Source of the DNA: Pachysolen tannophilus NRRL Y-2460
Taxonomy: Eukaryota
Length of the DNA: 64,000 nucleotides
Assembly: GCA_001661245.1 (NCBI GenBank)
Contig: KV454016.1
Span: 792,648 to 856,647, forward strand
Direction of reading: 5' to 3'
The position numbers were made by a program, and so were the translations under genes. Below the pieces are notes generated by a model. That model made no database searches. It saw nothing but the letters and a program-made list of their open reading frames with translations, and was not told the origin of the DNA. Shown here in pieces: positions 11,131-55,265 of this stretch; position 1 is the stretch's first letter, and the number at the start of each line of letters is the position of its first letter.

Positions 11131-12558
11131 TTAATATAAACCTAATTCTTTATCTGTCATTTCGTATCTAACCCAGTTAGATACGCAATTTTGATCGTAC
11201 AAATGAGGAAATGAAAACTTTCCTACTTCACATACAGGTCCACCTAGTTTACCTGATTTTGGTCCTGGTTCTCTTGTGTTGCATTTGTCACTATTTGGGC
11301 AGTTGTAGTATGGATAATGTTCGTATCCTATATCTCTGAACCAATGAATTTTAGATTTATCTTCAAATAATCCTAAACCTACAGAATGTACAGGTGCATC
11401 CCCCCATCTTTCATAATAAAATCCCCCTTTAGAATCCAAATATTGGAACCAATTATCATAAGGTTCTGATCTAAAGAAATCCATATTTCCTATTTCAAAA
11501 TTAGACCAGAAATGACAAGTTGAATAACCACCTGTTTCAGTTGTCTTTTTTTTATTCATAAAATCTTCAGTCAACCAATTAAATGCTCCATTTGGATGTA
11601 AATATTGCGGGTTTTGACTTAAAAATTCTAATGTTGTAGGCCACAAGGTTTTTATCGATTGCTGAGCATCATACAAACTTATGGTAAAACCATATGTCTT
11701 ATTATTCATTTCCATAAATTTAAATAAATCATAATCAATTTTACAAAAATAATTTGTTCCAGGTTCAAATCTCCAATACCACTTAAATTTCAGTAATCTT
11801 GGATGTTTATAAAAATTACCAGAATAGAAACGACACATGTTATGGTAACTCTCCATTTCCGAATATCCTATCTTTTCTTCTTTTAAATACAGAATTCCTT
11901 CACGTTCTTTTTCTTTATCTATTGTAGAAGGTTTTTTCCAAATTTTAGGATCAATAGCTTCAAAATAAAGTTCTCTACCTGGTAATAACAGCTTAATTCC
12001 ATTAATAAATTTTTGAGAAAATTCTGCATCATTTAAAAAAGTATATGGATAATGATATTTATTATTGAACTTATCTTCAATTTGTTGAATAGTAACAATA
12101 ACTTTATTTAACTCTCTATTTCTAGCTAATACCAATAATGTCGCATTTGCTCTATCATAATTAGAAGGATCCAGAGGAGGTTTCACCAAATTATCAACTT
12201 TTGGTTCATCAATTTTTTGAGTCAAATATTCATCATATTCACGCATATTCCAATTTATTATTTCATCTCTTGACATATCAGACTGTGGTAATTTCCCACT
12301 AAAAATCTTCTTCTTGATTAACCTTTCCAAAATAGAAGGCACCGAGAGCCCAGAAAGCTGCTGGTCCCCATTCTTAACACCACCCAGAACAGGTGATTTA
12401 TCATTTATATATTCGGACACGTATCCCGTCAACGTTTGAACTTGTATATTATATTCTGGGAAATAACTTTTATTAATGAAAAAACCCAAACCTACAAGAC
12501 AAATCAGCACCAATACCAACGTGAAAAATTTAATAAACTTTTTATTTAGTTTCAACAT
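11131..12558 (-). CDS. KRE2/KTR family (GT15) alpha-1,2-mannosyltransferase, type II membrane
   Basis: N-terminal TM segment; ANATLLVLARN, SYHNMCRFYSG, CHFWSNFEIG and GGFYYERWGDAPVHS motifs. Confidence 0.95.
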   Translation of the reverse strand: MLKLNKKFIKFFTLVLVLICLVGLGFFINKSYFPEYNIQVQTLTGYVSEYINDKSPVLGGVKNGDQQLSGLSVPSILERLIKKKIFSGKLPQSDMSRDEIINWNMREYDEYLTQKIDEPKVDNLVKPPLDPSNYDRANATLLVLARNRELNKVIVTIQQIEDKFNNKYHYPYTFLNDAEFSQKFINGIKLLLPGRELYFEAIDPKIWKKPSTIDKEKEREGILYLKEEKIGYSEMESYHNMCRFYSGNFYKHPRLLKFKWYWRFEPGTNYFCKIDYDLFKFMEMNNKTYGFTISLYDAQQSIKTLWPTTLEFLSQNPQYLHPNGAFNWLTEDFMNKKKTTETGGYSTCHFWSNFEIGNMDFFRSEPYDNWFQYLDSKGGFYYERWGDAPVHSVGLGLFEDKSKIHWFRDIGYEHYPYYNCPNSDKCNTREPGPKSGKLGGPVCEVGKFSFPHLYDQNCVSNWVRYEMTDKELGLY

Positions 12559-14546: not shown

Positions 14547-16697
14547 ATGTCTGATAGAATATACTTTGCTGATACTTTGCTTCATTGTTCAAATATAGAT
14601 GAGGTTAAAGAACGATTTGTGGATCAAGATATTAGAATTGGTAATTTAGATAAATATTCAGATAAAGTGATATTGCCGTCATCGGTTTTAGAAGATTTGG
14701 TTTCGCAACAACTGAGATTATCTTTAACTTCTTTGCCACAACCGTTAATATTTAAGCTTTCGGTAAGTAAAACAAAGTTTTGTTATGTTGGGGTCAAAGA
14801 ATTTTCAGCACCTTCAAATTATGTCTTGTTACCATTTTTTGTTCAAAAAAAATTAGATTTAGTTAAGGATAATAATGAATCAGTGGTGGAAGTTGAATTG
14901 GTTAATAATATACCAAAGGGTAAAGCACTTACTTTGAAACCTTTGGATATCGATTATAAAGTAACCGATTGGAAATTCTTCTTGGAGGCCAAATTGAATA
15001 ATCTATATGTGTGTTTAACAAAAGGAGATATCATTTATATCTATGATGACGTTAGCGATCAAATTTGCAAGTTGTTAGTTGAAGATGTTAAACCTCTGTC
15101 TACTGTTTGTATAATAGATACAGATATTGATTTATCTGTAGTTCCCTTAGATGATTCACATGCTGAGGCGATTTTGAAAGAAAGAGAATTTGATAAAAAT
15201 GAAGCTAAAATAATAAATATGAAACTTGAAGATTCTGTCTCAATAAATCAATTGGAGCTGGAAATGGATAAACCAATATATCAAATTGAAAATATTCAAA
15301 ATTTGAAAAAAACAACAAAAACAATTTACGTTCAATTTGTACTTAGTGATCCTGAATTTGATTTAAATTTAATTGATTTATTCATATCAAATGATAAATT
15401 TATAGATAAGCAAACTTGGATATGGTCAACATTCAAATATTCAGATACTATTAGGACAGAAGGTGTACTACAATTAGAAATACTTTTAGATTCTCCATTC
15501 ATAAATGATGAATTATCATTTTTACCATATATTTGGCAGGGCAAAACTTTTGGAGAACTTAGAATTTTATCAGAGGGAAATCACGGAATATTAAATAAAA
15601 ATAACGATGATAATAGTGGACTAGGTGCAGATCAAGGCTTAACAGCAGAAGACAAATTGAACTATACAGTATGTTCAAATTGTGGTTCCAAGATATCAAA
15701 ACAGTCTCAAATGTTACATGAAAATTTTTGTTTTAGAAATAACGTTAAATGTGATAAAGGCTGTAATAAAATTTTCCGTAAAACTATACCAACAGAACAT
15801 TGGCATTGTGACATCTGTTTTTCAGAACACAAACAAATAGTTTTTGGAGATTCATCTTATTTATATCAGCACCATAATAATATTTACCATCAGGAATATG
15901 ACTGTAAATGTGGGGGACATTTTACAAATTTATCGAATCTTGCATTTCACAAGGCAACTGAGTGTAAATTTAAATTGCACGAATGCAAATTTTGTCATTT
16001 AATAGTACCTAGAGGTGAACCAACACTGGAAAGTTTTATTTCCAATTTATCTAGCCATGAAAGTTCTTGTGGTTCAAAAACTGAAAATTGTCCAAAATGC
16101 GATAGACCTATAAGGAGAAGAGATTTAGAGAATCATTTAAAACTTCATGATTTGAACAGATTAGATCAGGCTACTCCACAAAAATGTTTGAATGAAAACT
16201 GCATTAGGACAAAGAAGTTAAATGAATTTGGATTATGTGAAACTTGTTTTGGCCCATCTTATTCAAGTGTATATGACCCTGATAATTCCAGACTTAAATC
16301 CCGTTTTGAGCGAAGATATGTTATTCAATTAACAAGAGGCTGTGGCAATACATGGTGTAAGAACAAAGAATGTAAATCTTCCGGTTTAATACCACCTGAG
16401 AAGTACAAGACAACTGGTGATTTAATCAATCATGTTAAAAATGATTTATTGACTAAGATTCCAAAAATTCCAGGAACTGAAATTACAAATTTAAATGATG
16501 GAGTTTATGAATTTTGTGTTGATTTTTCAATTGTGAAAAAGAAGTTCATAGCTGATTGGCTATATGAAGAAGGAGAATATAGTTTGAATTGGTGCTGTGA
16601 AGCAGTTAATCAATGTAATGATGAACAAAATGCTAGAGCTTGGTTACAAGAGAATGCTATCACTTTAGACGAAGAGGTTAAAAATTCAATTTTTTAA
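14547..16697 (+). CDS. UFD1-domain protein with TRAF-like zinc fingers and an AZUL-like C-terminal motif
   Basis: UFD1-like N-terminus (SDKVILPSSVLE, YVGVKEFSA, LTKGDII, CIIDTDIDL), several CxxC/HxxxC zinc motifs and RRYVIQLTRGCGNTWCKNKEC. Confidence 0.8.
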   Translation: MSDRIYFADTLLHCSNIDEVKERFVDQDIRIGNLDKYSDKVILPSSVLEDLVSQQLRLSLTSLPQPLIFKLSVSKTKFCYVGVKEFSAPSNYVLLPFFVQKKLDLVKDNNESVVEVELVNNIPKGKALTLKPLDIDYKVTDWKFFLEAKLNNLYVCLTKGDIIYIYDDVSDQICKLLVEDVKPLSTVCIIDTDIDLSVVPLDDSHAEAILKEREFDKNEAKIINMKLEDSVSINQLELEMDKPIYQIENIQNLKKTTKTIYVQFVLSDPEFDLNLIDLFISNDKFIDKQTWIWSTFKYSDTIRTEGVLQLEILLDSPFINDELSFLPYIWQGKTFGELRILSEGNHGILNKNNDDNSGLGADQGLTAEDKLNYTVCSNCGSKISKQSQMLHENFCFRNNVKCDKGCNKIFRKTIPTEHWHCDICFSEHKQIVFGDSSYLYQHHNNIYHQEYDCKCGGHFTNLSNLAFHKATECKFKLHECKFCHLIVPRGEPTLESFISNLSSHESSCGSKTENCPKCDRPIRRRDLENHLKLHDLNRLDQATPQKCLNENCIRTKKLNEFGLCETCFGPSYSSVYDPDNSRLKSRFERRYVIQLTRGCGNTWCKNKECKSSGLIPPEKYKTTGDLINHVKNDLLTKIPKIPGTEITNLNDGVYEFCVDFSIVKKKFIADWLYEEGEYSLNWCCEAVNQCNDEQNARAWLQENAITLDEEVKNSIF

Positions 16698-19464: not shown

Positions 19465-20030
19465 NNNNNNNNNNNNNNNNNNNNNNNNNNNNNNNNNNNN
19501 NNNNNNNNNNNNNNNNNNNNNNNNNNNNNNNNNNNNNNNNNNNNNNNNNNNNNNNNNNNNNNNNNNNNNNNNNNNNNNNNNNNNNNNNNNNNNNNNNNNN
19601 NNNNNNNNNNNNNNNNNNNNNNNNNNNNNNNNNNNNNNNNNNNNNNNNNNNNNNNNNNNNNNNNNNNNNNNNNNNNNNNNNNNNNNNNNNNNNNNNNNNN
19701 NNNNNNNNNNNNNNNNNNNNNNNNNNNNNNNNNNNNNNNNNNNNNNNNNNNNNNNNNNNNNNNNNNNNNNNNNNNNNNNNNNNNNNNNNNNNNNNNNNNN
19801 NNNNNNNNNNNNNNNNNNNNNNNNNNNNNNNNNNNNNNNNNNNNNNNNNNNNNNNNNNNNNNNNNNNNNNNNNNNNNNNNNNNNNNNNNNNNNNNNNNNN
19901 NNNNNNNNNNNNNNNNNNNNNNNNNNNNNNNNNNNNNNNNNNNNNNNNNNNNNNNNNNNNNNNNNNNNNNNNNNNNNNNNNNNNNNNNNNNNNNNNNNNN
20001 NNNNNNNNNNNNNNNNNNNNNNNNNNNNNN
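19465..20030. other. Assembly gap (N run) flanked by (TA)n
   Basis: Run of n. Confidence 1.
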
Positions 20031-20176: not shown

Positions 20177-23100
20177 ATGAACAATAGCAATATTCCGCCA
20201 CAACCACCGTCGTCGACTGGTGGTACTCCGCAACGCGCTCCGACTGCAACTTCTAATAGCGGTAGTGGTGGTACTTATAATAGTAACCGCCATCATCATA
20301 ATAATAATAATAGTAATAACGGTAACAACAGCAATAGTAATAAGACTTATAGGAAGAATTATAACAAGGACGGTGGTGCACTGTATCCTCAACAGATGCA
20401 ATATTTACAAAGCGCTTATTATCAGCATCCAAATATGTACGCCTCCGGTTATCATCAGCAATATTTTTATCCCGGCTCGATTCAATTGCCTCAATATAAT
20501 TTGGAACAGTATTCGAATTATTATCAGCAGCAGCAACAGCTGCTGCAACTGCAACAACAACAACTGCAGCAACAACAGCTGCATCACCACCACCATCAAC
20601 AGCTGCAACAACAACAACAACAACAGCTGCAACAGCTGCAGCAACAAATTTATCAGAATCACCTGCTCAACAAGTCTTTAAGTGGCAGTAAAGTCACATT
20701 GACCAATAAGGACGGTAAGCCACTCGATATAAAGCAACAACAACAACAACAACTGCTGCTGCTGCTGCTGCTGCTGCAAAGAGGAGGAAGTATACCATCA
20801 ACTCCTCAACTATCTCAGGCTCAACAGTTTCAACAAGTGAATTCATCGTCACAATCAACAACGGTGCTGTCTTCAGCAAAATCTTCTGTGGTTTCCACCC
20901 CGGTGGCTAAAGATGCACATGCTCAACTTTCAAGGCCAACTGGTCCTTCAACTCCTTTAAGACCAGATGCCACTACTCTGACTAGTTCTAAACCAATTTC
21001 TTCTCCATCAAAGATATCGGATTCAGAAAAGAAAGATGCTGCTGCATCATTCAAAGCTGCTATTGCTGCAAAGCTTGCCGCTGCAAAGAAATCTCAACAT
21101 CAAAGTAAAACAGCTTCTACAACACCAGTACCTGTCTCAGCAAGTACCACAACAGTATCTGCATCGTCTTCAGACCCAGCTAAAGATCCATCACAAGAAC
21201 CTGTTTCAAAAGAAGGCACTCCTGCATTTGCAACAATAGCATCTCCACCCTCATCTGCATCACCTGCACAGGAACAGGCACAGGTACTGGCACAGACTCA
21301 GGCTTCAAAACCTGTTTCTCAAGAAAAACAAGTTATTGAAGAATCTGTATCAGAGACAGCTAGAAACGATGGCTCAGAGGCAGTTGTTGCAACTTCAACT
21401 GTCGTAGACACAAAGAAAGAATCACCTGAGGTCAATGATACAAAACAAGAACCATCTACTATCTTAGGAGAAGAAGCTAAACCTATACCCGAAAAGGAAG
21501 AAACTGAAGTTAAAACTAAGGAAACAACTCAAATACCTCATGTTCCACATTTACCAAAGAAACCTGAAACACATCCAGCTCTTGAAGATCCAAAGGTAGA
21601 AAAGGTGAAAGAAGTTATATTAGAAAAACCTGAAGCTGTTAGTACTTTGGAAGCAGAAAAAGCTTCTACTGTTACTGATGCTACTGCTACTTCTGATGTT
21701 ACCACAGATGCTGTATCTACTTCGGTACCACAGCCATTGAAATCAGAAACTATCTTAGAAGAACAATCTGATGATGCGGCTGCTAAGAAAATTCCAGATA
21801 TCCCAGAAGTACCAAAGTTTACTATTTCAAAATTGATGGGAAAATTGAGATTTGCAAGAGTTGTAAATGCTTATGATTTTACTTATCCAGAGGGATTTTC
21901 AGGACCAGACTCTAAATTCAAGAATTCTGATAAGATTAAATATGATCCACCTTTCCTTTATCAATTTCAAAATAAATTAGAATTACCAAAAGATAAAGAT
22001 TGGGATACTAAATATGGATCTAAAATTGTAATCCCAGATCAACGTTCCTCGAATAAGAATAGCAATAGTGGTAATTACCAGCAGAGAAACAATAACGCTG
22101 GTAACAACAATGCTGGAAGCTCACAACAATTTGGTAAAGGATTTGTTGGTGTCAATGGTTCCAACGGTCCAATGCAAATAAGATCAGGTTCAAATATGAG
22201 AACCGCGGACTTTAATTCGCGTAGTGGTTCAAGACAAAATTCTAAGAGAAGAGTTGGTGGTGCAAATGTTAGTGGTGCTCGCGAAAAATCTACAAGAAAT
22301 AGAGATGGATCTAAGAGACACAATACCAAGTTTGGTGACAGACCTGAAGATGAGATGAGACAACATGATCAACCACCTCCTGAACCTGTCAAGCCTTTGG
22401 AAAAATCAGCTAACAGGTGGGTTCCAAGATCGAGAGTAAAAGCAGAGGCTGAAGTTAAAACAGCACCTGATGGTTCAGTAATATATAGCGAGGAAGATGT
22501 TGAGCGTAAAGTTAAATCACATTTGAACAAGTTGACATTAGAAAAATTTGATTCTATTTCAAATGAAATCTTGAACATTGCTAATCAATCTAAATGGGAA
22601 AAGGATGGAAAGACTTTAAAGCAAGTGATAGAATTGACTTTTGCTAAAGCGTGTGATGAACCACATTGGTCGAGCATGTATGCAAGATTCTGTTTTAAAT
22701 TAGTTACAGATATCTCTAAAGATGTACAAGATGAGACTTACTTAGATCCTAAAAACGGAGTACCGTTATCTGGTCCTGTCTTGGTTAGAAGATATCTATT
22801 AACAAGATGTCAATTAGAATATGAAAAAGGATGGACAGACAAGTTACCTACAAACGCTGATGGTTCTTCTATAGAACCAGAAATGATGTCTGATGAGTAT
22901 TATAAAGCTGCAGCTGCCAAGAGAAGAGGTTTAGGTTTGGTCAGATTTATTGGTGAATTATACAAATTAGGTTTATTGTTGGACAAAATTATTCTTCAAT
23001 GTTTAAATGCTCAAGTAACTAATATAACAGATCCTTCAGAGGACACATTGGAGAACTTGGTCCAATTATTAAGAACTGTTGGTGAGTTATTAGATAATTC

Positions 23101-23878
23101 TCCAAATCCACATTGTGTTCAATGTATGAATCTTGTTTTTCAAAGAGTTGAAAAAATTATCAAAACTTGTAATATTCCTTCAAGAATAAAGTTCATGTTA
23201 ATGGATGTTGTTGATTTGAGAAGGGGTAAATGGGTTGGTAACGATATTAACAAGGGTCCAAAGACCTTGACGGAAATTCATGAGGATGCTGAGAGGAAAA
23301 GACTTGAAGATGAAAGAGCTAACCAAGAACGTCGTCAAAATAGTCATAGAGGTGACTCAAGATCCAATTCTTCAAGAGGTGGTAGCAATAACCAATGGGG
23401 TTCAAATTCTAACAGAGTTTCTCAAAATGATATCAAGAATGTGGGTGTTGTTAGAAATTCTGACAGATCTTTAGGACCGATGAACAATTTCCAGAGATCT
23501 AGATCGACCAAGCAGGGTAGCAATAAGAGCAATAGTGGAATTAATCTTAATAGTGGTTTTACTCAAAACATACAATCAAGTAACAATAACACTAGTAGCG
23601 GCAGCAATATTGCAGCCGCTGGTAATATTTCTTCACCATCTTTGTCCCTGGTTAAGGATAATGCTGGTAGAGAGAATTCAAAGAGAGATACTCCAGCTTC
23701 TAATATGTTTGCTGCGTTGGAAGGACACGGTGGAGATGAAGAATCGAGCGATGAAGAAGTTGCTTCAAAAGAAGCTCCAATTGAAGGAAAAGAATCTATA
23801 GTGTCCACCCAAGCCACAGTGAAAGAGGAAGAAAGTGAAGGAAAAGTGAGCGCCAACGGTTTGGAAGGAACAAATTAA
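20177..23878 (+). CDS. TIF4631: Translation initiation factor eIF4G
   Basis: eIF4E-binding KYDPPFLYQF, KSANRWVP and MIF4G domain (LNKLTLEKFD, KACDEPHWSSMYARFC, RRGLGLVRFIGELYK). Next to RPT6, like TIF4632 in S. cerevisiae. Confidence 0.95.
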   Translation: MNNSNIPPQPPSSTGGTPQRAPTATSNSGSGGTYNSNRHHHNNNNSNNGNNSNSNKTYRKNYNKDGGALYPQQMQYLQSAYYQHPNMYASGYHQQYFYPGSIQLPQYNLEQYSNYYQQQQQLLQLQQQQLQQQQLHHHHHQQLQQQQQQQLQQLQQQIYQNHLLNKSLSGSKVTLTNKDGKPLDIKQQQQQQLLLLLLLLQRGGSIPSTPQLSQAQQFQQVNSSSQSTTVLSSAKSSVVSTPVAKDAHAQLSRPTGPSTPLRPDATTLTSSKPISSPSKISDSEKKDAAASFKAAIAAKLAAAKKSQHQSKTASTTPVPVSASTTTVSASSSDPAKDPSQEPVSKEGTPAFATIASPPSSASPAQEQAQVLAQTQASKPVSQEKQVIEESVSETARNDGSEAVVATSTVVDTKKESPEVNDTKQEPSTILGEEAKPIPEKEETEVKTKETTQIPHVPHLPKKPETHPALEDPKVEKVKEVILEKPEAVSTLEAEKASTVTDATATSDVTTDAVSTSVPQPLKSETILEEQSDDAAAKKIPDIPEVPKFTISKLMGKLRFARVVNAYDFTYPEGFSGPDSKFKNSDKIKYDPPFLYQFQNKLELPKDKDWDTKYGSKIVIPDQRSSNKNSNSGNYQQRNNNAGNNNAGSSQQFGKGFVGVNGSNGPMQIRSGSNMRTADFNSRSGSRQNSKRRVGGANVSGAREKSTRNRDGSKRHNTKFGDRPEDEMRQHDQPPPEPVKPLEKSANRWVPRSRVKAEAEVKTAPDGSVIYSEEDVERKVKSHLNKLTLEKFDSISNEILNIANQSKWEKDGKTLKQVIELTFAKACDEPHWSSMYARFCFKLVTDISKDVQDETYLDPKNGVPLSGPVLVRRYLLTRCQLEYEKGWTDKLPTNADGSSIEPEMMSDEYYKAAAAKRRGLGLVRFIGELYKLGLLLDKIILQCLNAQVTNITDPSEDTLENLVQLLRTVGELLDNSPNPHCVQCMNLVFQRVEKIIKTCNIPSRIKFMLMDVVDLRRGKWVGNDINKGPKTLTEIHEDAERKRLEDERANQERRQNSHRGDSRSNSSRGGSNNQWGSNSNRVSQNDIKNVGVVRNSDRSLGPMNNFQRSRSTKQGSNKSNSGINLNSGFTQNIQSSNNNTSSGSNIAAAGNISSPSLSLVKDNAGRENSKRDTPASNMFAALEGHGGDEESSDEEVASKEAPIEGKESIVSTQATVKEEESEGKVSANGLEGTN
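20753..20776 (+). repeat. In-frame (CTG)8 run directly after (CAA)6 in eIF4G
   Basis: caacaacaa ctgctgctgctgctgctgctgctg caa, in frame with the ATG at 20177. Confidence 0.95.
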
Positions 23879-31221: not shown

Positions 31222-33235
31222 TTAGGATCCAAATTTACTTAAAAGATAACATTTCACGTTTAAAAGGATACGATTAGCAGCTTTGGAAGACGAATTTAAA
31301 AATTTGTTGAAGTCAAGTTTTTGAGCACGATTATAAGTTCTAATTAGCCCTATCCGTGCTTCCTCAATTAAAACTCTACTCATATCAATACTCTTATTTC
31401 CCCATTTCTTTGAATTGCTGATATAAAATTTATGAATATGATTTAAGTTTTCTGAAGCATTTGAAAAAACTGTAGATAGCTGAGTAGATAGCTGGCCTGT
31501 CAATTTCCTTAATTTGGAAGCAGAAAAATCAAGTTGGTGATTTAAATGTTTACCAATTACTGTAAATTTCTTACTCAAGATTTCTGAAACTTGATCGTAT
31601 TTTTCATCAAACTCCACTAGAAACTTAATCATCAGCTTATTAGATTTCTTTGAAAGAATAACACTTTTTTTCTTTAAATCTTTCCAATGATCTGCAAGCT
31701 TATAATCTTTAGCCTTCTTAGAAATCAAAATCTTATTGCTTTTGTAAAAATTTATACTTTTCAATTTCCCTTCTTCAAAAAATTCTAGAGAACGCCTCTT
31801 CAGTTCATTAATGTTATCTGAATTATCTTCTAACAAACATTGAACTTTACTTTTTAAAGTTTCAGAGTTTTGTTCCACAAAATCAGCAAAATCAGCCGCA
31901 ATATTACCTAATAAAACAGAGCCTGTTTCTGCATATCTTGTAAAATCATTCAATTGATTAACTAATTCTTCAATGAAGATCTCTTGTTGTGACTTAAGTT
32001 CCTCTTTTAATTTATCCAAGTCCTCATTGGCTACAACGATGTTAGCATTCGAAGAAACAAGTTTACCTAGATGATTTAAATTAAATAATTTTTTAATATC
32101 CAGTAATTTCATCAAAGTTTTTCGCCTCTCAGGTATATTACTGAAAGACGATATATAACTATTGGACTTTGTACTATAACGAATTATGCCTCTATCTTTA
32201 ATTTTTTTGCTATTATATTGACAAAAATTTACGATAAATTCTGAATATTCATCAGTACCTAATTCGGGATTAACGTTAATAGAAATTTTATCTTCTTTGA
32301 AATCTCTAGCTAACAATTCGTCATTCAATAAGATGTTTCTTGATAGTTCTTCAATTTCATTTTTGGAGAAATCATTGTATTTTGCAGGAATATACAAGAT
32401 CAAATCTACCAGATCAATGTTTGAGATCTTGTTATCATCCAATTTTTCTTCTGAAATAGACCGCGTAACAATAGTTTTAAATTCTTCTTCAACGCAATGT
32501 AAAATAGTAATTTTCTTATCAGAATAGTACGTATCACGAATGTTGAAAAAAACAGAAGGTGGATAAGAATCAACTGAATCAATCAACCCCTTATTAGAAA
32601 TTTGATTAACACCAAAACTATAAGTTAGGTAAAGTAATAATGAAGTCAAAGCAATTCCTGCAATACTCAGGCCATTATACACAACTCCATGGAATTCTTT
32701 CTTAATTAACATTTTTGTTTTAACTTCTTCAAAAGCATTTAATGAAGCATAAAAAAATTCTTTGATGGATTCCATTGTAGAATTTAAAGAATTATTAAAT
32801 TGTTCCAAAAAATAATCAAGAATTTTTTCTTCATTTACAAAAGAATGTTGAGAATTATGATCGATATTAGTAATGTTATCCATTTGTTTATCATTTTCAA
32901 TATCATTTTCAACATTTTTTTTTGGGAAACTTAGTTTTGGTAAAGTTAAAGATGAATCCACCAATGGAGTAACCTCCTTTTGGGATTTAAGAGTTGAAAT
33001 AGAAGCCTCGTTATTTGGGGCATCAGCTGAAAGGCGCTCTCCGTCATTACCATGGTCATTTCCATGGACATCACCATGAGAAGTTCCATGTTCAATCACA
33101 TTCAGATTGTTATCGTCAAATGAGTTTGAATCGTCTGTCGAATAAATAACCGACCACGAATCATCTGTTTCATCTAATTCATCACCAGCTACCAAAACTG
33201 TATTACTATTTCTATTATTCCTTCTACTATTACTA

Positions 33236-33266
<31 letters not shown>

Positions 33267-33492
33267 CATTATTATTATTAGTATTGGTATTATTATTACT
33301 ATTATCTTGATCACTCAGATTCAAAAGACCACCAATATTTTTTTCAGAATCACTGCTATCATCGTTATTATTGTTATCGGTAGAAGGAGTTAAGCCTCCA
33401 CTTGAAGATGAAGATAAAGATTTCAAATCTGTTGGATGTTCATCATCCGATGGCCCACCATTACTGTCATCACTGATTTGATTCGAGGACAT
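31222..33492 (-). CDS. Orphan single-pass membrane protein with acidic N-terminus and helical C-terminus
   Basis: Long ORF with first ATG at 33492 (the ORF track starts at a TTG). One hydrophobic segment SIAGIALTSLLLYLTYSF. Family not recognised. Confidence 0.8.
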
Positions 33493-34179: not shown

Positions 34180-35679
34180 TTAAAACTTATCTTCAGCGCC
34201 TCCCATCTTTTTAACTTCATGATGTAATTCAGCCAAATTATTGGATAATTCCATGAATAAATGGAATTCTTCTTTTAAAGTTCTAACTATGAGATCTAAA
34301 CCACCAACATTATTTAAATCAACTAGTCCATTGATAGATATTTTATCCATATTATTCACAGTATTTTCTATTTCTTGTAAAATTGATTTATATTTTTCGA
34401 TATTATTTACGAAATCTTCAATTTTAAGGATATAATATTGATTCAAGATATTTGTTGCATTTGCTGATACAGATGAATTATATCTACCTTGTTGTTGATT
34501 TCCAACTGGACTAGCACCATTACCTGAACCTAATCCATTATTACCTTTTAATAAATCTTGATTTGTCAATTGAAGATATAATTTCAATAATCTTTCAACC
34601 CAATCGTTAAAAGTTTCCAAATTTTTTGATTTGAAAGAATCTATAAATTTCAAATCACTGCTTAATGCTTGATTCACAGAATAGTATTTATTTTCAAGAT
34701 ATTTGATATCTCTAGGTATGCTATCAATAAGTTCTTTATGGTTTGCTTCTTCATTTTTTAAACCTTCAGCAATTTGCAATTGTAGTTTGATGTACTTATC
34801 CAATTCTTCAATCTCTTTTTGATAAGCCTCTGGTAAATCACTTACTCTGGTCAATGAAGTCAATTGAGGAATTTGTTGTTGCAATTGCTGCTGTTGTTGT
34901 TGCTGTTGTTGCTGCTGATTAACATTTCCAAAAAGTCCTCCACCGGTACTGCCAAAATTCGTACCACTGGCACTATTATTAGTATTAATGTTGTTATTGT
35001 TATTATTACCAAGACCGAAACCTTGGAAAGGGTTTTGTTGAGTGTTATTACTGTTATTATTGCTATTACTAGTGTTGCCAAGATTGAAAGCACCACCAGA
35101 CGTACTGTTTCCAAACAAACCACCTCCCGTTTGAGTTTGGGTTTGGCCACCAGTGCCAGTGCCAGTACCAGCACCAGTTCCAGCTGCAGCGGGCTTCGAC
35201 ATACCAAACCCAAACCCAGACCCAAACCCAGATCCTAAACCGCCTAAACCACCTGAACCACCTGCGGCCCCTAAACCGCTCGTGCCAGCCATTGTATTTG
35301 TACTTGGGTTATTACCGGTCTTGAGAGAAAATCCACCTGGAGCATTACTACCGCCAAACATACTTCCAGAATTCGTATTACCACCACTACCACCACTAGC
35401 ACTACCACCACCGAAACCTCCAAAACCTCCCGTGCTACCAAACAGATTCTGCCCACTTTGCGAAGAAAACGGATTAGAAGCCTTTGCCCCAAATCCTTGA
35501 CCACTAACACCTAAACCGCCATTATTATTACTATTATTATTATTATTAATATTATTATTCAATCCAAAACCAGTCTGCCCAGAATTTGTATTGGTATTAG
35601 TATTCGCGTTATTGTTACTACCAAAACCAAATCCCATCCCACTAGATGCATTTTTCGAAGAAGCCAAACCTCCAAACAT
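34180..35679 (-). CDS. NUP49: FG nucleoporin Nup49
   Basis: FG/GLFG repeats, then LTRVSDLPEAYQKEIEELDKYI and a coiled-coil C-terminus. Divergent from XRN1 as in S. cerevisiae. Confidence 0.88.
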   Translation of the reverse strand: MFGGLASSKNASSGMGFGFGSNNNANTNTNTNSGQTGFGLNNNINNNNNSNNNGGLGVSGQGFGAKASNPFSSQSGQNLFGSTGGFGGFGGGSASGGSGGNTNSGSMFGGSNAPGGFSLKTGNNPSTNTMAGTSGLGAAGGSGGLGGLGSGFGSGFGFGMSKPAAAGTGAGTGTGTGGQTQTQTGGGLFGNSTSGGAFNLGNTSNSNNNSNNTQQNPFQGFGLGNNNNNNINTNNSASGTNFGSTGGGLFGNVNQQQQQQQQQQQLQQQIPQLTSLTRVSDLPEAYQKEIEELDKYIKLQLQIAEGLKNEEANHKELIDSIPRDIKYLENKYYSVNQALSSDLKFIDSFKSKNLETFNDWVERLLKLYLQLTNQDLLKGNNGLGSGNGASPVGNQQQGRYNSSVSANATNILNQYYILKIEDFVNNIEKYKSILQEIENTVNNMDKISINGLVDLNNVGGLDLIVRTLKEEFHLFMELSNNLAELHHEVKKMGGAEDKF

Positions 35680-45700: not shown

Positions 45701-45802
45701 AACATCGAGAAGTATAAGAGGTTGATAAGTCTTGCATGTGGAATTGATGACATTAATGAGGAACTATTAGACGGCATACAGAATGCTTTATTTAAGACTT
45801 AG
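42771..45802 (+). CDS. SWI4: SBF/MBF DNA-binding subunit (APSES + ankyrin), Swi4-like; exons 42771-42812 and 42989-45802 (951 aa)
   Basis: Spliced start MDIHQQIYIATYSNVDVFESVINGIPLMRRC; KIQGGYGRFQGTWIPL; ankyrin motifs GHTPLHWA and GDSSLHICA. Swi4 versus Mbp1/Res assignment is not certain. Confidence 0.8.
42813..42988 (+). other. Spliceosomal intron in the SWI4-like gene (176 nt, phase 0)
   Basis: GTAAGT donor, TACTAAC at 42955-42961 and TAG acceptor; restores the APSES N-terminus. Confidence 0.93.
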
Positions 45803-45843
45803 TTTACATATATATTAAAAAAAAAAAAAAAAAAAAGTAACAT

Positions 45844-45884
<41 letters not shown>

Positions 45885-46229
45885 NNNNNNNNNNNNNNNN
45901 NNNNNNNNNNNNNNNNNNNNNNNNNNNNNNNNNNNNNNNNNNNNNNNNNNNNNNNNNNNNNNNNNNNNNNNNNNNNNNNNNNNNNNNNNNNNNNNNNNNN
46001 NNNNNNNNNNNNNNNNNNNNNNNNNNNNNNNNNNNNNNNNNNNNNNNNNNNNNNNNNNNNNNNNNNNNNNNNNNNNNNNNNNNNNNNNNNNNNNNNNNNN
46101 NNNNNNNNNNNNNNNNNNNNNNNNNNNNNNNNNNNNNNNNNNNNNNNNNNNNNNNNNNNNNNNNNNNNNNNNNNNNNNNNNNNNNNNNNNNNNNNNNNNN
46201 NNNNNNNNNNNNNNNNNNNNNNNNNNNNN
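45885..46229. other. Assembly gap (N run)
   Basis: Run of n flanked by (TA)n and poly-T. Confidence 1.
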
Positions 46230-46912
46230 TTTTTTTTTTTTTTTTTCTTATTATTTTTCTTTTTCGCTTCATTTTTACATAAACAATTAACTATCATTGA
46301 ATTTTAATCTCATCTTTTAGTATTTATATATATATATATATATATAAATATATATGATTATATTTGTAACTTATATTTGGTATATGTCGTCTTATGACCA
46401 TACTTGGGGGCGACACAGAAAGAAAAAGCGACACAATCCCAAAAAGCGCCCTACCAAAATAGGATTTCTTGCTTCCAAATTATAGTGAGATGTCACAAAG
46501 TTCGAAAAAGAAAAAGCCAAAAACTCGTACAAATCATACCTACACTCATCACCAACAAAAACTGGAATTCAGTACACACAACTTCCAGATTGGGCAATCT
46601 CTCCAAAAACCGGAAACATTTAAAGTTTAAAGATGAGGAGATGCGGGACAATATCTTTTCCGGGGTAACAAAAAAAAACAGAATATAGATCGTCATTCTC
46701 CCAAAGAACAAATAAGTTTCCTGTATTCTTATTGGCTGTTTTTCGCTGTTTGGTATCACTTGTAAAACAATTTTGTATATGAACAGAACAATTGGTAGAA
46801 GAAAAAAAAAAAGAAAATTAAAATTCACTTTTTATATGTTAAACGGTGCACTTTGTATTAGATCTCAAAAATTTGTATTCTACTTTTTATTACCATTTTC
46901 CTCTATAAAAAA

Positions 46913-47297: not shown

Positions 47298-49751
47298 ATG
47301 ACAGATCAATTTACCAAGAATAATAATAGTGATGGTTCCAGTTTAACTCAAAATCGTCCTTCATTAACTTCATTAACTTTAAACAGAAATTTTTTAAAAA
47401 ATAAAAGTATACAATCAAATATTAAAAATGTTAATTCAAATATTTTAACTCAGATTTATTTTGAGAATTCTACAATTGATGCAAGACTGGAAGAAAGATT
47501 GTTGAATTTTAAAAATTTTCAAAAATTATTTGCCAATAATGACGGTAGTATTGGTTTGTTGTATTTAATAGCTGATAGGGATAGAAAAGGGTTTTTAAAT
47601 TTAGAAGATTGGTTGGTTTTCACAAAATCATTTTTAGACTATAATAATAATAATACGCTGAATAAATTGGTATCAGAATTGGAAAATGATAACAAATTGA
47701 TGTTCAAATTATTTAAAATCTTGGAAAATGATTATTATAAACCAAAAGTTTCAAATGAAAATTATATTGATCGTCAAAGGTTTATTGAAATATTGAAAAA
47801 AATTAATTTAGGTTCTATTAATGATACTAAGCAAGTTCCAGAAGATGAAAAAGATGAAAAAATTGAAATTGTTTCTGGAATTGAAAAATTTCTTGAAGAA
47901 AATAAAGAATATTTAATAAATGACAAGATCGATTTTAAATTATTTCAAAAATTGTTTCAAAATTTACCAATTATAAAATTTAATATAGAATTTGATAAAA
48001 AAATTGATTCGAATCAAAATAACAAGATAATTTCTTTAGAGTTTTTCAAAAAATCAATCGTTAATGTTTTTGATAATAAATTACCAATTCAACTTTTAAA
48101 TAATATTGATCAACTTGTTGGTTCAAATAAGACTTTAAATTATAATGAAGCAGTGATAATTATCAATTTTTTGAAAAATTTACCAAAATTTAATTATTTA
48201 TTAATGAGTAATGTCTTTTCACAAAATCAAACTACAAAATCTGATTCTATTTCTTTAGATGATTTCTTAAATTATATTAATAAAAATTCTACTGAAAAGG
48301 CCCAATTGAAAGAGGTTGAACTTTATTTCTATTGGAATTGGTTGATTTTGAAAAAAAATGGCGTTACTGAAGCAAATAAAAAATCAGTTAATAAATCCAA
48401 TATTATATCTTTATTGAGTAATACTACTGATACAAATGTTGAGACGGATAAAGCGGTAAAAACATCTAATAGAAATAACTTATATCCAATTTTCCATTCG
48501 TTATATTCATTTGTTCTTGGTTCTGCTGCAGGTGCATTTGGTGCAACAATAGTTTATCCAATAGATCTAGTTAAGACAAGAATGCAAGCTCAAAGACACT
48601 TTAACAAAGTATATAATGGATATTTGGACTGTTTCTATAAAGTTCTCAAAGGAGAAGGTTTTAGAGGAATGTATTCTGGTATTGTTCCACAATGGGTTGG
48701 TGTACTGCCTGAGAAAGCTATTAAATTAACTGTTAATGATATTGTAAGAAAATTAGGCACTGATAAAAATAGTGGTACTATTCCTTTGTATTGGGAGATT
48801 TTAGCTGGTTGTTCTGCTGGGGCAACTCAAGTCATCTTCACCAACCCTTTAGAAATTACTAAGATTAGGTTACAAGTCCAAGGTGAAGCTTTACAAAAAT
48901 TGAAAACGTCTTCAGATGCTGTTACTGCAACAACTGCAACAACTGCTATTCGAAAATTGACCGCATGGAATATTGTTAAGAGTTTAGGTTTTAAAGGTTT
49001 GTATAAAGGAAGTTTTGCTTGCATTTTAAGGGATGTTCCTTTTAGTGCCATCTATTTCCCCACGTATGCTAATCTAAAGAAATATTTATTTGGATTTAAT
49101 CCAAACGAACCAAGAAAGATTCAAAATTGGCAACTTTTAGTTAGTGGCGCATTGGCTGGAATGCCAGCAGCTTTCTTGACAACACCGAGTGATGTTATCA
49201 AAACCAGATTACAAGTGGAAACTAAAAAGGGAGAAACCAAGTATTTAAATGTTAGACATGCTTTCAAGACAATTTTGAAAGAAGAAGGGTTCAAAGCATT
49301 TTTCAGGGGTGGTATTGCAAGAGTATGCAGATCATCACCACAATTTGGTTTTACATTAGCTTCCTATGAAATTTTTCAAAAATATCTTCCATTTGACCTG
49401 ATTTATGATGTCAGTAAAAATCTTAATACCGATCGTTCAAACAACATTACATGTTTAACACCTGAAAAGGTAGAAAATTTTTCCGTCCAATCTCCAAATA
49501 AATATAATGTTGCAAATGTATTAAATTATTATTACTATTTTGGTGACTCGAATGCTATTAATAATACACAACTGTTGCAATTTATTTCAAAAAATAGAAT
49601 CCAGAATAAGCATAATACCGAAGCATTTTTAAATGAAAAGTTAAGGTTAAACAGTCAAAAATTTTTAAATCATTGTTTTGAGTTTAGTGGTAATTTTAGA
49701 AAATTCAATTATTTTGATTACATGAAAAATGTTAGAACTGATACCATTTAA
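47298..49751 (+). CDS. AGC1: Mitochondrial aspartate/glutamate carrier Agc1 (aralar/citrin family)
   Basis: Long N-terminal domain and three carrier repeats ([33 protein letters not shown]), plus [22 protein letters not shown] and [10 protein letters not shown]. Confidence 0.95.
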
Positions 49752-50058: not shown

Positions 50059-52094
50059 TTAAACCTTGATATTTTTCATTTTTTCCCTTTGCTCTTTTAC
50101 GAATTGTTCTTGTAAAGCTTCTAGCTCTAAAAATAATTTCTCATCTATTGTGAAACAACCATTTTTAACTATATCATTAAAAGTAGAATCTTTGAATATA
50201 AATCTTCCAATTTGTTCAATCTTATTGTCAATTAAACTAGTGTTCAAAACAGCATCCCTTAACCTGTCTAACATTTTTGCCTTTTTCAACATAGCAGATT
50301 TTTTCTTATATTCTTTAATTTCAGGGGTTGATGGGAAATCAGACCTGTGGAAGCCAGGTGGAGATACTGGTCTATCCCATATATTGGTCCTCGAAATGCC
50401 ATGTTTAGTATAATAACCAATTCTCGGGTCGTTATTATTTGGCCTGAATCTGCTCATTAAATTATCATCATTTTTTTTCTTTTTTTCATTATTATCCCAT
50501 CTAATACCTCCTGAAGTTTCAGGCATAGGTCCAATCGCTTCGGAAAATTTTAGGCATTGTGGACATTTACAATGTTGATCCTTCTTATTATGATTGAAAT
50601 GTTTGAAGAATTCCGTTTGTCTGTTTTTCCCTCTTACAGTTCCTGTATATGCAATATCCAATCCATTATTCACGAACGGATTTGGCTGAAAATCCTCTAA
50701 TATCCATTCTCTGGTTTTAAGAAAGTTCCATGATAAATCAACAGTTTCTGACATGTGGTTATTGTTGTTTTTTCGGCGCTTTGACGGCGTTATATAATGA
50801 TTGTCAGGCGTTAATAAAAGATCACTCTGTTTTGTCAATTTTTTAATCTTTTGATCATGGGTCTTTGAAGTCGCGTTAATATCTTTGTTTTTCAGTAGCA
50901 AAACATTTGTGTCTTTCTTGAGGTTATCAGTCAGCGGTGTGGGTAGACAATTAGTGATTTCGCTGAAATCGTCTTGCGAATCATCGATAAATGAATCTTG
51001 GAGGGGGGTTCCCTTCCGTTCATCTTCAGTGTTCTCTTCAATTCTTGGCTTTTCGGTATGATTTTTTTTGGTTTTCATTGGACTAGACAATAATTCAATT
51101 TCTTGAGATTCTTCTACATCACGGAAATCGTACGAGTCATCAGTTTTGACTGAGTACTCTCTATTTTCAGTGTCACTTTCTCTTACATGATCCAATTTTG
51201 CATCCATTTCCATATCAATACTGGCTGGGAAAATCGGTAATGAAGAATTGCTTTCATCAGAAGTTTGAAAATTGAAGCTATCTCTACGATTAAACGGAAC
51301 TTTAAATTCACTATTCTCAGCTCTAGATTTTCTCTCTGTATTGAAAATAGTTTTTTGATGTACATGCTTGTTATTCTGTTCTTCTTGAGATTCAACATCT
51401 GATGAATATTGAGTTGGAGACATAAAATAGTTGTTCTCTTGTGTGCTTGAGTTCTTGTTCATAAAGTCCAAGTCTATATTTTCTTTATTTTCCTCGATAT
51501 TTTCTACTTGACCCTCATGATTCTTTAAAAAGTCTAAACTTCCCAAATCCAGAGATGTGTTATTATTCTGTTTATTTTCTGTGTTAGATGAGGCTTGCGA
51601 ATTTCCTCTTTCCTTTGAATTTATAAGGTCAAAAATGTTGTGTTGTGTAGTAGAATTTGAATTTGAATTTTTTGAGCTTTTATTATTGGTTAGATTCAGT
51701 ATCTGGGCCTTTAAGCTGGAAATAAGCTTTCCATTATTATCATTATCATTCTTGTGACTCTTGACTTCTTGTAGATATTTTTCATTTAACAGATTAAAAG
51801 AAGCCGCGTATGAAGATATTTTACTGCCATTAGCGGACTGCCTCAATTTTATTTCCAATTTTTCATTAGTCTTCTCTAATCTCTTAATCTTTTCAAGGAT
51901 AGCCTTATGACTTTCAAGCACTATAAAAAATTTCGTTATGTTAGCTCGACTAAACTTCATTGACTTTAAATTCTAATCTTGGAAAATAACTTACAATCTT
52001 GGTATTTTTTGTCCTTTTCTTTGAAATATTTTTCCAGATCCAGGGCCCACAATAAAAACCCATTCAAAGGTGAGTCACTATTCTCCTTATTCAT
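50059..52094 (-). CDS. SAE2: DNA end-resection factor Sae2/Ctp1/CtIP; exons 52094-51995 and 51920-50059 (653 aa)
   Basis: N-terminal coiled coil, WILEDFQPNP, CPQC and SPPGFHRSDFPST. An open 100-nt upstream exon joins in frame. Lies in the NUP49-XRN1-BUD13 neighbourhood as in S. cerevisiae. Confidence 0.85.
51921..51994 (-). other. Predicted spliceosomal intron in SAE2 (74 nt, phase 1)
   Basis: GTAAGT donor, AGCTAAC branch-like site (51940-51946) and TAG acceptor; the join preserves frame. An unspliced ATG at 51960 is an alternative start. Confidence 0.8.
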
Positions 52095-52487: not shown

Positions 52488-55265
52488 TCATTCTGTCTTT
52501 TCTCTGTTATTATACATATTATCACATATCTCCACGTTGTAGCCCAGACTTCTTTTACCGCAGTGGTAAATTAATCTGGCGTTTTCACCTGCAATTTCTG
52601 AAGGAGCTCTACTTAATGTTTTATATAACAATTTGCATAACCCAAGCATGTTTCCCTTATTTGCAACTTTATCGATATTAAATGCGTACTCAATCAAGGT
52701 TTGATAATATTCTGATCCTGTTACATTAGAGTCAAATATATGAATTTTTCGCTTTGTCAATCTGAACAAATTACTTCTAATTCTTCTTAGATAGGAAAAT
52801 CCTTCTTCTCTTTCTTTTAAATTGTCCAAGTCTACGTCTTTCCCTTCTGGACAATAATTGGATTCGGGACCTTCTGCAATGAAGTTATAATCCCATATAT
52901 ATAACATTGCAACGCCAATAGAGTAAGATCGATTGAAAACATCTTTCACGGGATCATATAAGCGATTTGCATCAGTCACAGAATCGTGAGGTGATAAAAA
53001 CATTTCCCATAAGAGTAAAAAACAATTGATCAAACAAATTTTTGAATCCAAAGTTTTTAAACAAAATCTTTTAAATCTGTCCAATATCTCTAATCTATCG
53101 CTATGATGCGGTTTAACATTCATCCACCATGGTGCCCCTGCTATGATAAAAAGATCATAATGTTGAATCCTCAGGTATACATGCGTTGTATGAAATGAAG
53201 TCAATTTACAGCTGGAGTCAGTGTCAACAAATTCAGGTATTAATCCATTGGAATTGGCATTTCTATAAGCATTGCTAACTAAAGAATTTGAACATCCTGC
53301 ACCAATATCATTCTTCCAATACAGTAAAGCTTTTGTAATAATTTCTTTCCAATTTTTGTTGTTTTTGTTGTTTAATTTTGCTCTTTCATCTTCTAGGCCA
53401 AATGATAATTGTAAATCTCGTTGTTGCATTTGGAATAATACGGCAACGAGTCCAGCAAAAAGTATTTTCTTGTTGAAGTATGTCAACTTAGAAAAATATT
53501 CACTCATGTCTTCCTTAATTGCACTTTTCTTGCTATTATAATTTAGCAATTTTTTCAAACTAGTCAAGAAAACTGGTTGAAGCGGTATAATTTTTTCACT
53601 TCCAGAAAGCTTCATATTATCCCACAACTCGTCATTACATGGTAATTGGGATTGAATCTGATGAGCAAAAATAGAGACCAAATGGCCATAATGAATCAGA
53701 TCAATGGTATCCAAATAAAATACAGTGAAAGTAATCCTTTTCATTGATTCCACCTCCACCCATCTTTCATAAATTTCCTTATTTGATAATCTATTGCCAT
53801 CATTGTTATGGTTTAATTTGATTGGATTACCTCCCAAGGTTGGAGATCTTCTCAATAATTGAATTACGGTACCATGATGCAAATGAGCTCTCTCATGTAA
53901 TTTTCTAGTAGAGCAAGATTTTTCATAATATTCTAACATTATCAAACTTTGGAACACCCAAAGTTTAGCAGGCAGTACAAACTCTGGATCTAAAAAAATT
54001 AACCACCTTAAAGGCACTGCAATCAAATCGCCAATTACTTTATAAGTAGATTCTGTAGATTCCAGATCTGCAGAAAAGGCGGAATTATATGAAAAATTAG
54101 TTCCCAACATTATCATTGAAAGTAATAAAATATGAGGTGCCTTCAATGTATTAAAAGAAGGTTTATGCATAAAGGGAAATTGAGGATGGAAACATTTCCA
54201 ATAATTAATTAAAAATTTTGAAACATTTTCTAAATTAAAACTTTCCACTGTGGCCAATGAAGGAATAAGTTCAACCAACTTGGTAATTGTAACTTGATCA
54301 ATTTGATATAATCTTTGATCTTCAAACTGTATGTTTGAATTATTTGAAGTATTTGAAATATTGAATTTGTTATTGGCAGCCATACTATTCCTATCATTAA
54401 TAACAGTTGTATTGGTATTGGTATTGTTACTATAAGGTGAAAATAATGTTTGATCGTTGAACATGTTCAACAATTGCGAATTAGGTGATAAATCGTTAAA
54501 ATCATCAAAACCAGGATATTCAAAATTTAAAAATAACAGATCGAGATTATATGCATTGTTGCTTGTAGAAGTGAACATATCGAAATTATTTGAATTTAAT
54601 AGATCTGAATTTACCGAATCGTTATTGTCTTCGTTCAACATCCAATTCAAAAAATTCGAACTATGTTGTTGCCTAGAGGTTCGTTGATGGTTTGAATAAG
54701 GAGAAGCTTGCCCTGGGGAAACTTCCGAAATTGTTGATGTTGTAGTTGGTATTCGGGCCAGTGAGCTTGTTTCTGAAGGAGATGAAGATGACGATGTAAA
54801 AAGTGAAATGCTCGTACTGTTTTTACTTTTAATATTTGAAATTAAACTTTTATTACTCGCATTTTCTGTAACGGTATCGTTTTGGTCTTGTATAATTTGT
54901 GTTTCCTCCAGTTGTTGGTCATCATTATTCAAAAAGAAAAAAGACGATAATTTTTTCTTATAGTTTCTTTCATTCCCCAACTTTCTAATATTTTTAAAAT
55001 CATTATTTGTAATTTTTGATGATCTCAACTCATGCCTTTTCAAATGGCGCTTTAATAAATCATTTCTAACAAATGTCTTAAAACAATTATTGTACGTGCA
55101 TTTATAAATGACTTTCGGGTTATGATTTAGTCTATGTCGATTTAAATGCTCACTTCTTGAAAACACCTTAGAGCAATTAGGCTCATTGCATCTATATTTC
55201 TTTCTATTATCGTTATCTCCTTCTAATTCTTGTTTCATACTTTCATCAGTATCAGTCCCAACCAT
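52488..55265 (-). CDS. SDD4: C2H2 zinc finger + fungal transcription factor middle domain, Sdd4/YPR022C-like
   Basis: FSRSEHLNRHRLNHNPK...FVRNDLLKRH, YWKCFHPQFPFMHKPSF and PAKLWVFQ. Near AGC1 as in S. cerevisiae. Confidence 0.75.
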   Translation of the reverse strand: MVGTDTDESMKQELEGDNDNRKKYRCNEPNCSKVFSRSEHLNRHRLNHNPKVIYKCTYNNCFKTFVRNDLLKRHLKRHELRSSKITNNDFKNIRKLGNERNYKKKLSSFFFLNNDDQQLEETQIIQDQNDTVTENASNKSLISNIKSKNSTSISLFTSSSSSPSETSSLARIPTTTSTISEVSPGQASPYSNHQRTSRQQHSSNFLNWMLNEDNNDSVNSDLLNSNNFDMFTSTSNNAYNLDLLFLNFEYPGFDDFNDLSPNSQLLNMFNDQTLFSPYSNNTNTNTTVINDRNSMAANNKFNISNTSNNSNIQFEDQRLYQIDQVTITKLVELIPSLATVESFNLENVSKFLINYWKCFHPQFPFMHKPSFNTLKAPHILLLSMIMLGTNFSYNSAFSADLESTESTYKVIGDLIAVPLRWLIFLDPEFVLPAKLWVFQSLIMLEYYEKSCSTRKLHERAHLHHGTVIQLLRRSPTLGGNPIKLNHNNDGNRLSNKEIYERWVEVESMKRITFTVFYLDTIDLIHYGHLVSIFAHQIQSQLPCNDELWDNMKLSGSEKIIPLQPVFLTSLKKLLNYNSKKSAIKEDMSEYFSKLTYFNKKILFAGLVAVLFQMQQRDLQLSFGLEDERAKLNNKNNKNWKEIITKALLYWKNDIGAGCSNSLVSNAYRNANSNGLIPEFVDTDSSCKLTSFHTTHVYLRIQHYDLFIIAGAPWWMNVKPHHSDRLEILDRFKRFCLKTLDSKICLINCFLLLWEMFLSPHDSVTDANRLYDPVKDVFNRSYSIGVAMLYIWDYNFIAEGPESNYCPEGKDVDLDNLKEREEGFSYLRRIRSNLFRLTKRKIHIFDSNVTGSEYYQTLIEYAFNIDKVANKGNMLGLCKLLYKTLSRAPSEIAGENARLIYHCGKRSLGYNVEICDNMYNNREKTE

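Follow-up and report, generated by a model that had tools for sequence, protein, structure and literature searches.

CTG codons at alanine positions in a 64-kb window from a yeast very probably of the CUG-Ala clade

The window analysed here, a 64-kb stretch of yeast DNA, has a G+C content of 30.2% and contains 911 Ns in two runs of 566 and 345 bases (positions 19465-20030 and 45885-46229, respectively). Twenty-two open reading frames (ORFs) of at least 150 codons start with ATG in this region, and the Pfam content is that of ordinary budding-yeast genes, comprising IML1, KTR, XRN1, eIF4G, BUD13, SWI4/MBP1 and LCP5, as well as a PUF protein, RPS8, a proteasome ATPase and others. One of these frames (45799-46272, minus strand; 157 codons) lies almost wholly within the second of these runs and does not represent a gene, and its codons are included in the total of 14,864 used below. 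For three further ORFs (31222-33492, 34180-35679 and 50059-51960) no Pfam family was found at E-values up to 1, and their 13 CTG codons lie outside the assessment that follows. ARAGORN, run with introns allowed or not, detected no tRNA gene within the 64-kb window.

CTG occurs 91 times among the 14,864 codons and at least once in 17 of the 22 ORFs. It is commoner than either CTA (58) or CTC (26), an order that would be odd in a genome of 30% G+C if CTG were a leucine codon. The eIF4G gene (20177-23878, plus strand) carries 22 CTG codons, 21 of which are located in a Gln-rich, low-complexity N-terminal region (20381-21289), including eight in a row right after a Gln run (20753-20776). Read with CTG as Ala, this tract becomes Gln/Ala-rich with a poly-Ala block, while with CTG as Leu it would hold an unusual poly-Leu block (the eIF4G CTG codons, codon 1158 among them, were kept outside the tally described below).

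The CTG codon under study lies in an AGC1-like mitochondrial aspartate/glutamate carrier, encoded by an 817-codon ORF at 47298..49751 on the plus strand. The predicted protein contains three mitochondrial-carrier repeats (Pfam PF00153, E 2.6e-70) and, among the homologues listed, its closest named relatives are yeast AGC1 proteins. The frame includes five CTG codons (64, 121, 470, 701 and 759), and that at codon 470 (48705..48707), in the local sequence GGT GTA CTG CCT GAG AAA GCT ATT, is in frame and falls exactly on the Ala of the carrier motif G-V-A-P-E-K-A-I-K-L. The preliminary description had placed a CTG at this conserved Ala, and the alignments confirm it: in a query-anchored BLAST comparison with 119 listed homologues, the unfiltered column holds 118 Ala and a single Leu, and once a filter for local context was applied Ala was present in 118 of 118 homologues. 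The lone Leu belongs to P0006, a misaligned beetle fusion protein. Across the 18 AGC1 columns in which Ala makes up at least 85%, Leu is rare (7 cells, from 4 of the 119 homologues), which indicates that the match to Ala at codon 470 exceeds chance; four of those seven cells belong to one protein, P0024, a likely CUG-Ala relative.

The AGC1 ORF is fully covered, with zero mismatches, by contigs from three public sequencing runs of two studies (X1, X3 and X5), and this identity makes an assembly error unlikely. X1 and X3 derive from the same sample and are flagged as near-identical, and that sample, as well as X5 from the second study, is a possible source of the window's DNA, so that their independence from the window is incomplete.

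To place codon 470 in a wider frame, we tabulated the residues aligned to CTG codons in four families: AGC1, a C2H2/Fungal_trans transcription factor (TF), a KTR4-like mannosyltransferase and a UFD1-like zinc-finger protein. The TF is encoded at 52488..55265 on the minus strand (925 codons, nine of them CTG), the KTR4-like alpha-1,2-mannosyltransferase at 11131..12558 on the minus strand (475 codons, six CTG), and the UFD1-like protein at 14547..16697 on the plus strand (716 codons, four CTG). The last of these combines the UFD1 N-terminal subdomains with XAF1/TRAFD1-type zinc fingers and an AZUL zinc-binding domain, and has 1103 relatives at E-values up to 0.001 in the representative library. 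Homologues numbered 119 listed for AGC1, 119 listed for the KTR4-like protein, 150 representatives for the UFD1-like protein and 64 of the 68 found for the TF (its own record and the three weakest matches were excluded). CTG was masked as X in each query, and every homologue was aligned to the query by BLASTP; cells entered the count when the 10 positions around them had no gap and at least four identities, and columns when at least 10 such cells remained. This procedure yielded 1537 query-anchored columns, each supported by at least 10 homologues, in which 11 of the 24 CTG codons of the four families were usable (the remaining 13 fall where the sequences did not align, and were dropped).

Ala was the commonest residue at four of the 11 CTG columns and tied with Val at a fifth, while neither Ser nor Leu was commonest at any. 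In addition to AGC1 codon 470, TF codon 523 (53697-53699, minus strand) occupies an Ala column (A 44 and Y 9 of 56), UFD codon 184 (15096-15098, plus strand) has an Ala plurality (A 15, E 8 and S 7 of 37), KTR codon 129 is led by Ala over acidic residues (A 7, E 6 and D 4 of 22), and UFD codon 494 shows A 5, V 5 and T 3 of 21. Others are polar or mixed: TF codon 648 aligns with D 24, A 13, S 5 and T 3 of 45, TF codon 431 with P 44, S 8 and T 3 of 58, and KTR codon 223 with E 13, K 10 and Q 5 of 44. KTR codon 256 had been put forward as a small-residue site, a proposal that does not survive the alignment, since Lys and Gln lead there (K 43, Q 36, S 9, R 7, L 5, A 3 and M 1 of 104). Two of the 11 columns are hydrophobic, namely TF codon 698 (M 24 and L 4 of 28) and TF codon 907 (I 7, L 6, V 3 and M 2 plus others, of 27).

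We then converted the tally into a Codetta-like score, defined as the summed log-odds of each amino acid's column frequency over the CTG columns. At the 11 sites Ala scored +6.46, followed at a distance by Ser (-5.72), Met (-9.4), Lys (-11.15) and Leu (-15.69). To calibrate it, we scored 37 other codons in the same way with draws of 11 sites each; the correct amino acid came out in 99.3% of draws, and for the worst codon in 91%. In the three families that contribute nine of the sites, the mean frequencies at CTG columns were 0.28 for Ala, 0.06 for Ser and 0.05 for Leu. Tabulating residues at CTG codons in this style had been suggested as a check on the proposed code, and it puts Ala first, with no column dominated by Leu or Ser. 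On these alignments, the CTG codons thus sit at Ala-rich columns rather than at Leu or Ser columns, the distribution that NCBI table 26 predicts. An empirical substitution-matrix score over nine sites disfavoured Leu, whereas Ser and Ala came out too close to tell apart (Ser -28.7, Ala -30.3, Leu -36.3; Leu fell outside the ten best, and its value was taken from the per-site scores); since Ser, Ala, Thr and Met are unseparated by this measure at so few sites, it served as a control and not as the main score.

Further CTG codons were compared with solved structures, reading the alignment partners by eye. The partners are S, A and K for KTR codon 190, P, Q, P and P for XRN1 codon 196, and E and A for BUD13 codon 266, while in LCP5 they are F for codon 54, S and L for codon 199, and E and N for codon 204. 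None of the CTG sites aligned to solved structures coincides with a conserved Leu position. Structural coverage of SWI4/MBP1 is restricted to the N-terminal and ankyrin parts and does not reach SWI4 codon 852, which the preliminary description had named as a counter-example resembling a Leu position; codon 585 of the CLK-like kinase falls in an unaligned insert. IML1 codon 413, which had been cited as another small-residue position, fits this description in part: human DEPDC5 has Ala there, whereas S. cerevisiae Iml1 has Met. BUD13 codons 134 and 141 lie inside a duplicated SGA.AGL / TG. motif whose register against human BUD13 is ambiguous, and were left out of the count; likewise, IML1 codon 196, which pairs with an Asn of S. 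cerevisiae, falls where the domain match is not significant, and was not counted. Such a mixture of partners is the pattern published for a captured codon: according to PMC4937558, CUG positions in P. tannophilus correspond to conserved Ala where they are conserved at all, and are otherwise scattered.

The window's own protein records are already present in public collections. Compared with translations under table 11, P0002 (AGC1) differs at five positions, all CTG and all L to A; P0122 (TF) differs at nine, all CTG and all Ala; and P0191 (KTR) differs at four, which are all of its covered CTG codons and again all Ala. In total, 18 of 18 CTG codons are rendered as Ala with zero other differences, so that the genome has evidently been deposited with CUG=Ala. 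The Ala in these records is a curator's choice of translation table and not independent evidence. P0002 and P0122 are present in NCBI, UniRef, nr and MetaClust, each alone in its cluster. P0191 (381 amino acids) begins at codon 95 of the 475-codon ORF (11131-12558, minus strand), which means that the deposited KTR model begins further downstream than the longest ORF would. Among the listed AGC1, TF and KTR homologues, the only match named as P. tannophilus is P0232, a KTR paralogue that is 54% identical. Beyond the window's own masked records, these lists contain no AGC1, TF or KTR4 orthologue assigned to P. tannophilus, and many other yeast species are represented in them; such an outcome would be expected if the window is from P. 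tannophilus, to which it points indirectly and at the level of the species only.

To locate the window among the yeasts, we built a tree of AGC1 proteins, a single gene with 24 rows, in which the named taxa carry the clade labels that we take them to have. The window pairs with P0024, a Logan protein, with an SH-aLRT support of 97, and this pair is nested in a clade (SH-aLRT 100) with eight Pichiaceae-type rows from Komagataella, Kuraishia, Ogataea and Brettanomyces. A nine-taxon CUG-Ser1 clade (SH-aLRT 100) is separate from the window, and Babjeviella also stands apart. As far as one gene can tell, the window therefore sits beside the Pichiaceae and outside CUG-Ser1, where a member of the CUG-Ala clade would be expected. 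This position matches the published one, the Ala/Leu2 split being described in PMC5951914 as a deep division within the Pichiaceae. The NCBI taxonomy places Pachysolen in the order Alaninales.

P0024 itself has Leu at four of 17 conserved-Ala AGC1 columns, the highest value among the 288 sequences scored, and these positions differ from the window's own CTG codons. The protein was apparently translated with the standard code, and its pattern is the likely signature of a second CUG-Ala yeast whose CTG codons arose independently. In 19 of the 288 homologues Leu appears instead at conserved-Ser columns, as would be expected from a standard-code translation of CUG-Ser yeasts; the window does not have such a pattern. 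P0024, P0069, P0076, P0077, P0267, P0300 and P0308, together with others, are yeast proteins that seem to have been mistranslated with the standard code. P0288, a KTR-family mannosyltransferase with 51% identity to that of the window, bears an NCBI label of an Asgard-group archaeon metagenome-assembled genome and has Leu at a conserved-Ser column, which suggests that its bin was contaminated by a yeast of a CUG-Ser clade.

Taken together, these observations are best explained by an origin of the window in the CUG-Ala clade of yeasts, the order Alaninales, with Pachysolen tannophilus as the most likely species and with nuclear genes that follow table 26, in which CTG is Ala; we hold this reading with high confidence. 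The preliminary description had arrived at a CUG-Ala yeast, with Ser considered less likely, and this view gains support from the tally, the public records (18 of 18 CTG codons as Ala) and the AGC1 tree. According to the literature, CUG would be decoded as Ala by a tRNA with the anticodon CAG that bears Ala identity elements, the ancestral tRNA-Leu(CAG) having been lost. The present CTG codons would then be new Ala codons that arose by mutation where Ala was accepted. Some of them would lie at strictly conserved Ala residues, AGC1 codon 470 being one; many would occupy variable sites on the protein surface, and a small number hydrophobic sites that tolerate Ala. In P. tannophilus, the tRNA(CAG) has G3:U70 and A73 and lacks a long variable arm, and of 907 CUG positions with full support, 97.2% read Ala by LC-MS/MS (PMC4937558); that the same tRNA and peptide-level decoding operate in this genome is what we infer from these published data.

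Under a first alternative, CUG would be Ser (NCBI table 12, as in CUG-Ser1 or CUG-Ser2), and AGC1 codon 470 would represent a conservative replacement of Ala by Ser. Ser does rank second in the log-odds tally and is marginally first in the matrix score, and some Ser is present in the polar CTG columns (8 of 58 at TF 431, 9 of 104 at KTR 256 and 7 of 37 at UFD 184). Against this, Ser leads in not one of the 11 columns, and its mean frequency of 0.06 is well below the 0.28 of Ala, so that the alignments do not show the Ser-rich CTG columns that table 12 would produce. In the calibration, 3000 draws of true Ser codons never exceeded an Ala-minus-Ser margin of 2.3, against the observed +12.2. True Ala codons gave margins with a mean of 27.0 (sd 6.8, minimum 3.0), and the observed value falls inside their range, towards its low end because the CTG columns are less conserved than ordinary Ala-codon columns. 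The AGC1 tree, which sets the window outside the CUG-Ser1 clade and apart from Babjeviella, and the public records, which give Ala, also argue against Ser, and we regard this reading as very unlikely.

A second possibility is ambiguous decoding, in which Ala would be the main reading of CUG beside a substantial fraction of Leu or another residue, much as Ser and Leu are both inserted in Ascoidea asiatica, where the decoding of CUG is stochastic. The existence of dual decoding in another yeast clade (PMC6041473) lends this idea some plausibility, as does the minority of CTG codons at hydrophobic positions (TF 698, TF 907 and LCP5 54). On the other hand, the 97.2% of Ala in P. tannophilus comes with deviations that are no commoner than those at AUG (PMC4937558), and Ala is tolerated at many hydrophobic positions; we regard this explanation, too, as very unlikely. 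There is also only a slim chance that CUG is mainly Ala with a meaningful Leu or context-dependent share, or that the window represents an unrecognised CUG-Ala lineage with a different origin of its tRNA(CAG); if partial Leu decoding or a separate lineage were real, the CTG codons at TF 698, TF 907 and LCP5 54 would be functional rather than tolerated.

The standard code, with CUG as Leu and AGC1 codon 470 as a lineage-specific substitution or an assembly error, is next to impossible to reconcile with the data, because the hydrophobic columns at TF 698 and TF 907, the Phe aligned to LCP5 codon 54 and the Met of S. cerevisiae at IML1 codon 413, which speak for it, are outweighed by a mean Leu frequency of 0.05 at CTG versus 0.61 at the other five Leu codons (117 columns), by an Ala-minus-Leu score that was reached in none of 5000 draws of true Leu sites (three families, nine CTG sites), by the score of -15.69 for Leu in the tally, by the identity of the AGC1 ORF in run contigs of two studies and by the excess of CTG over CTA and CTC at 30% G+C. 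In these alignments the CTG columns do not resemble those of other Leu codons, as the standard code would require, and Leu is rejected.

With Ala as the preferred reading, the consequences for annotation are direct: a standard-code translation misplaces Leu for Ala at 91 codons in 17 of the 22 ORFs of the window. Mistranslation of this type does occur in public collections, as illustrated by P0024 (four of 17 Ala columns) and by the 19 homologues with Leu at Ser columns. The change of CUG to Ala is a textbook example of how a sense codon is captured once its tRNA is lost; it was reported by Muhlhausen et al. (2016), and Krassowski et al. (2018) widened it to a clade. Since the code has already been described, novelty hinged on the species, as the preliminary description had cautioned, and the window adds no new lineage, mechanism or exception.

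Among known systems, CUG-Ser1 (Candida/Debaryomyces, table 12) and CUG-Ser2 (Ascoidea/Saccharomycopsis) share with the window a codon taken from Leu and the absence of CTG at conserved Leu positions. They differ in that their CTG codons lie at Ser columns, whereas none of the window's 11 columns is led by Ser, and its tally comes out for Ala. The resemblance is closer to the CUG-Ala clade, or Alaninales, which according to PMC5951914 contains Nakazawaea and Peterozyma in addition to Pachysolen, every reassigned clade having its own novel tRNA(CAG); as in that account, the window forms a separate branch in a clade that contains the Pichiaceae, a comparison made with a single-gene tree. Finally, no difference was detected from the code of Pachysolen tannophilus (table 26; PMC4937558), a comparison drawn from the window's genes, alignments and public records alone: CTG falls at a conserved Ala and at other non-Leu positions in both, the public translation is Ala, the genome is AT-rich, and the presence of CTG in 17 of 22 ORFs compares with the published 80% of genes. 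The observation is correct, the assignment of CUG to Ala is supported, and the phenomenon is already known; the species is a member of the CUG-Ala clade as described, and probably the one that typifies it.
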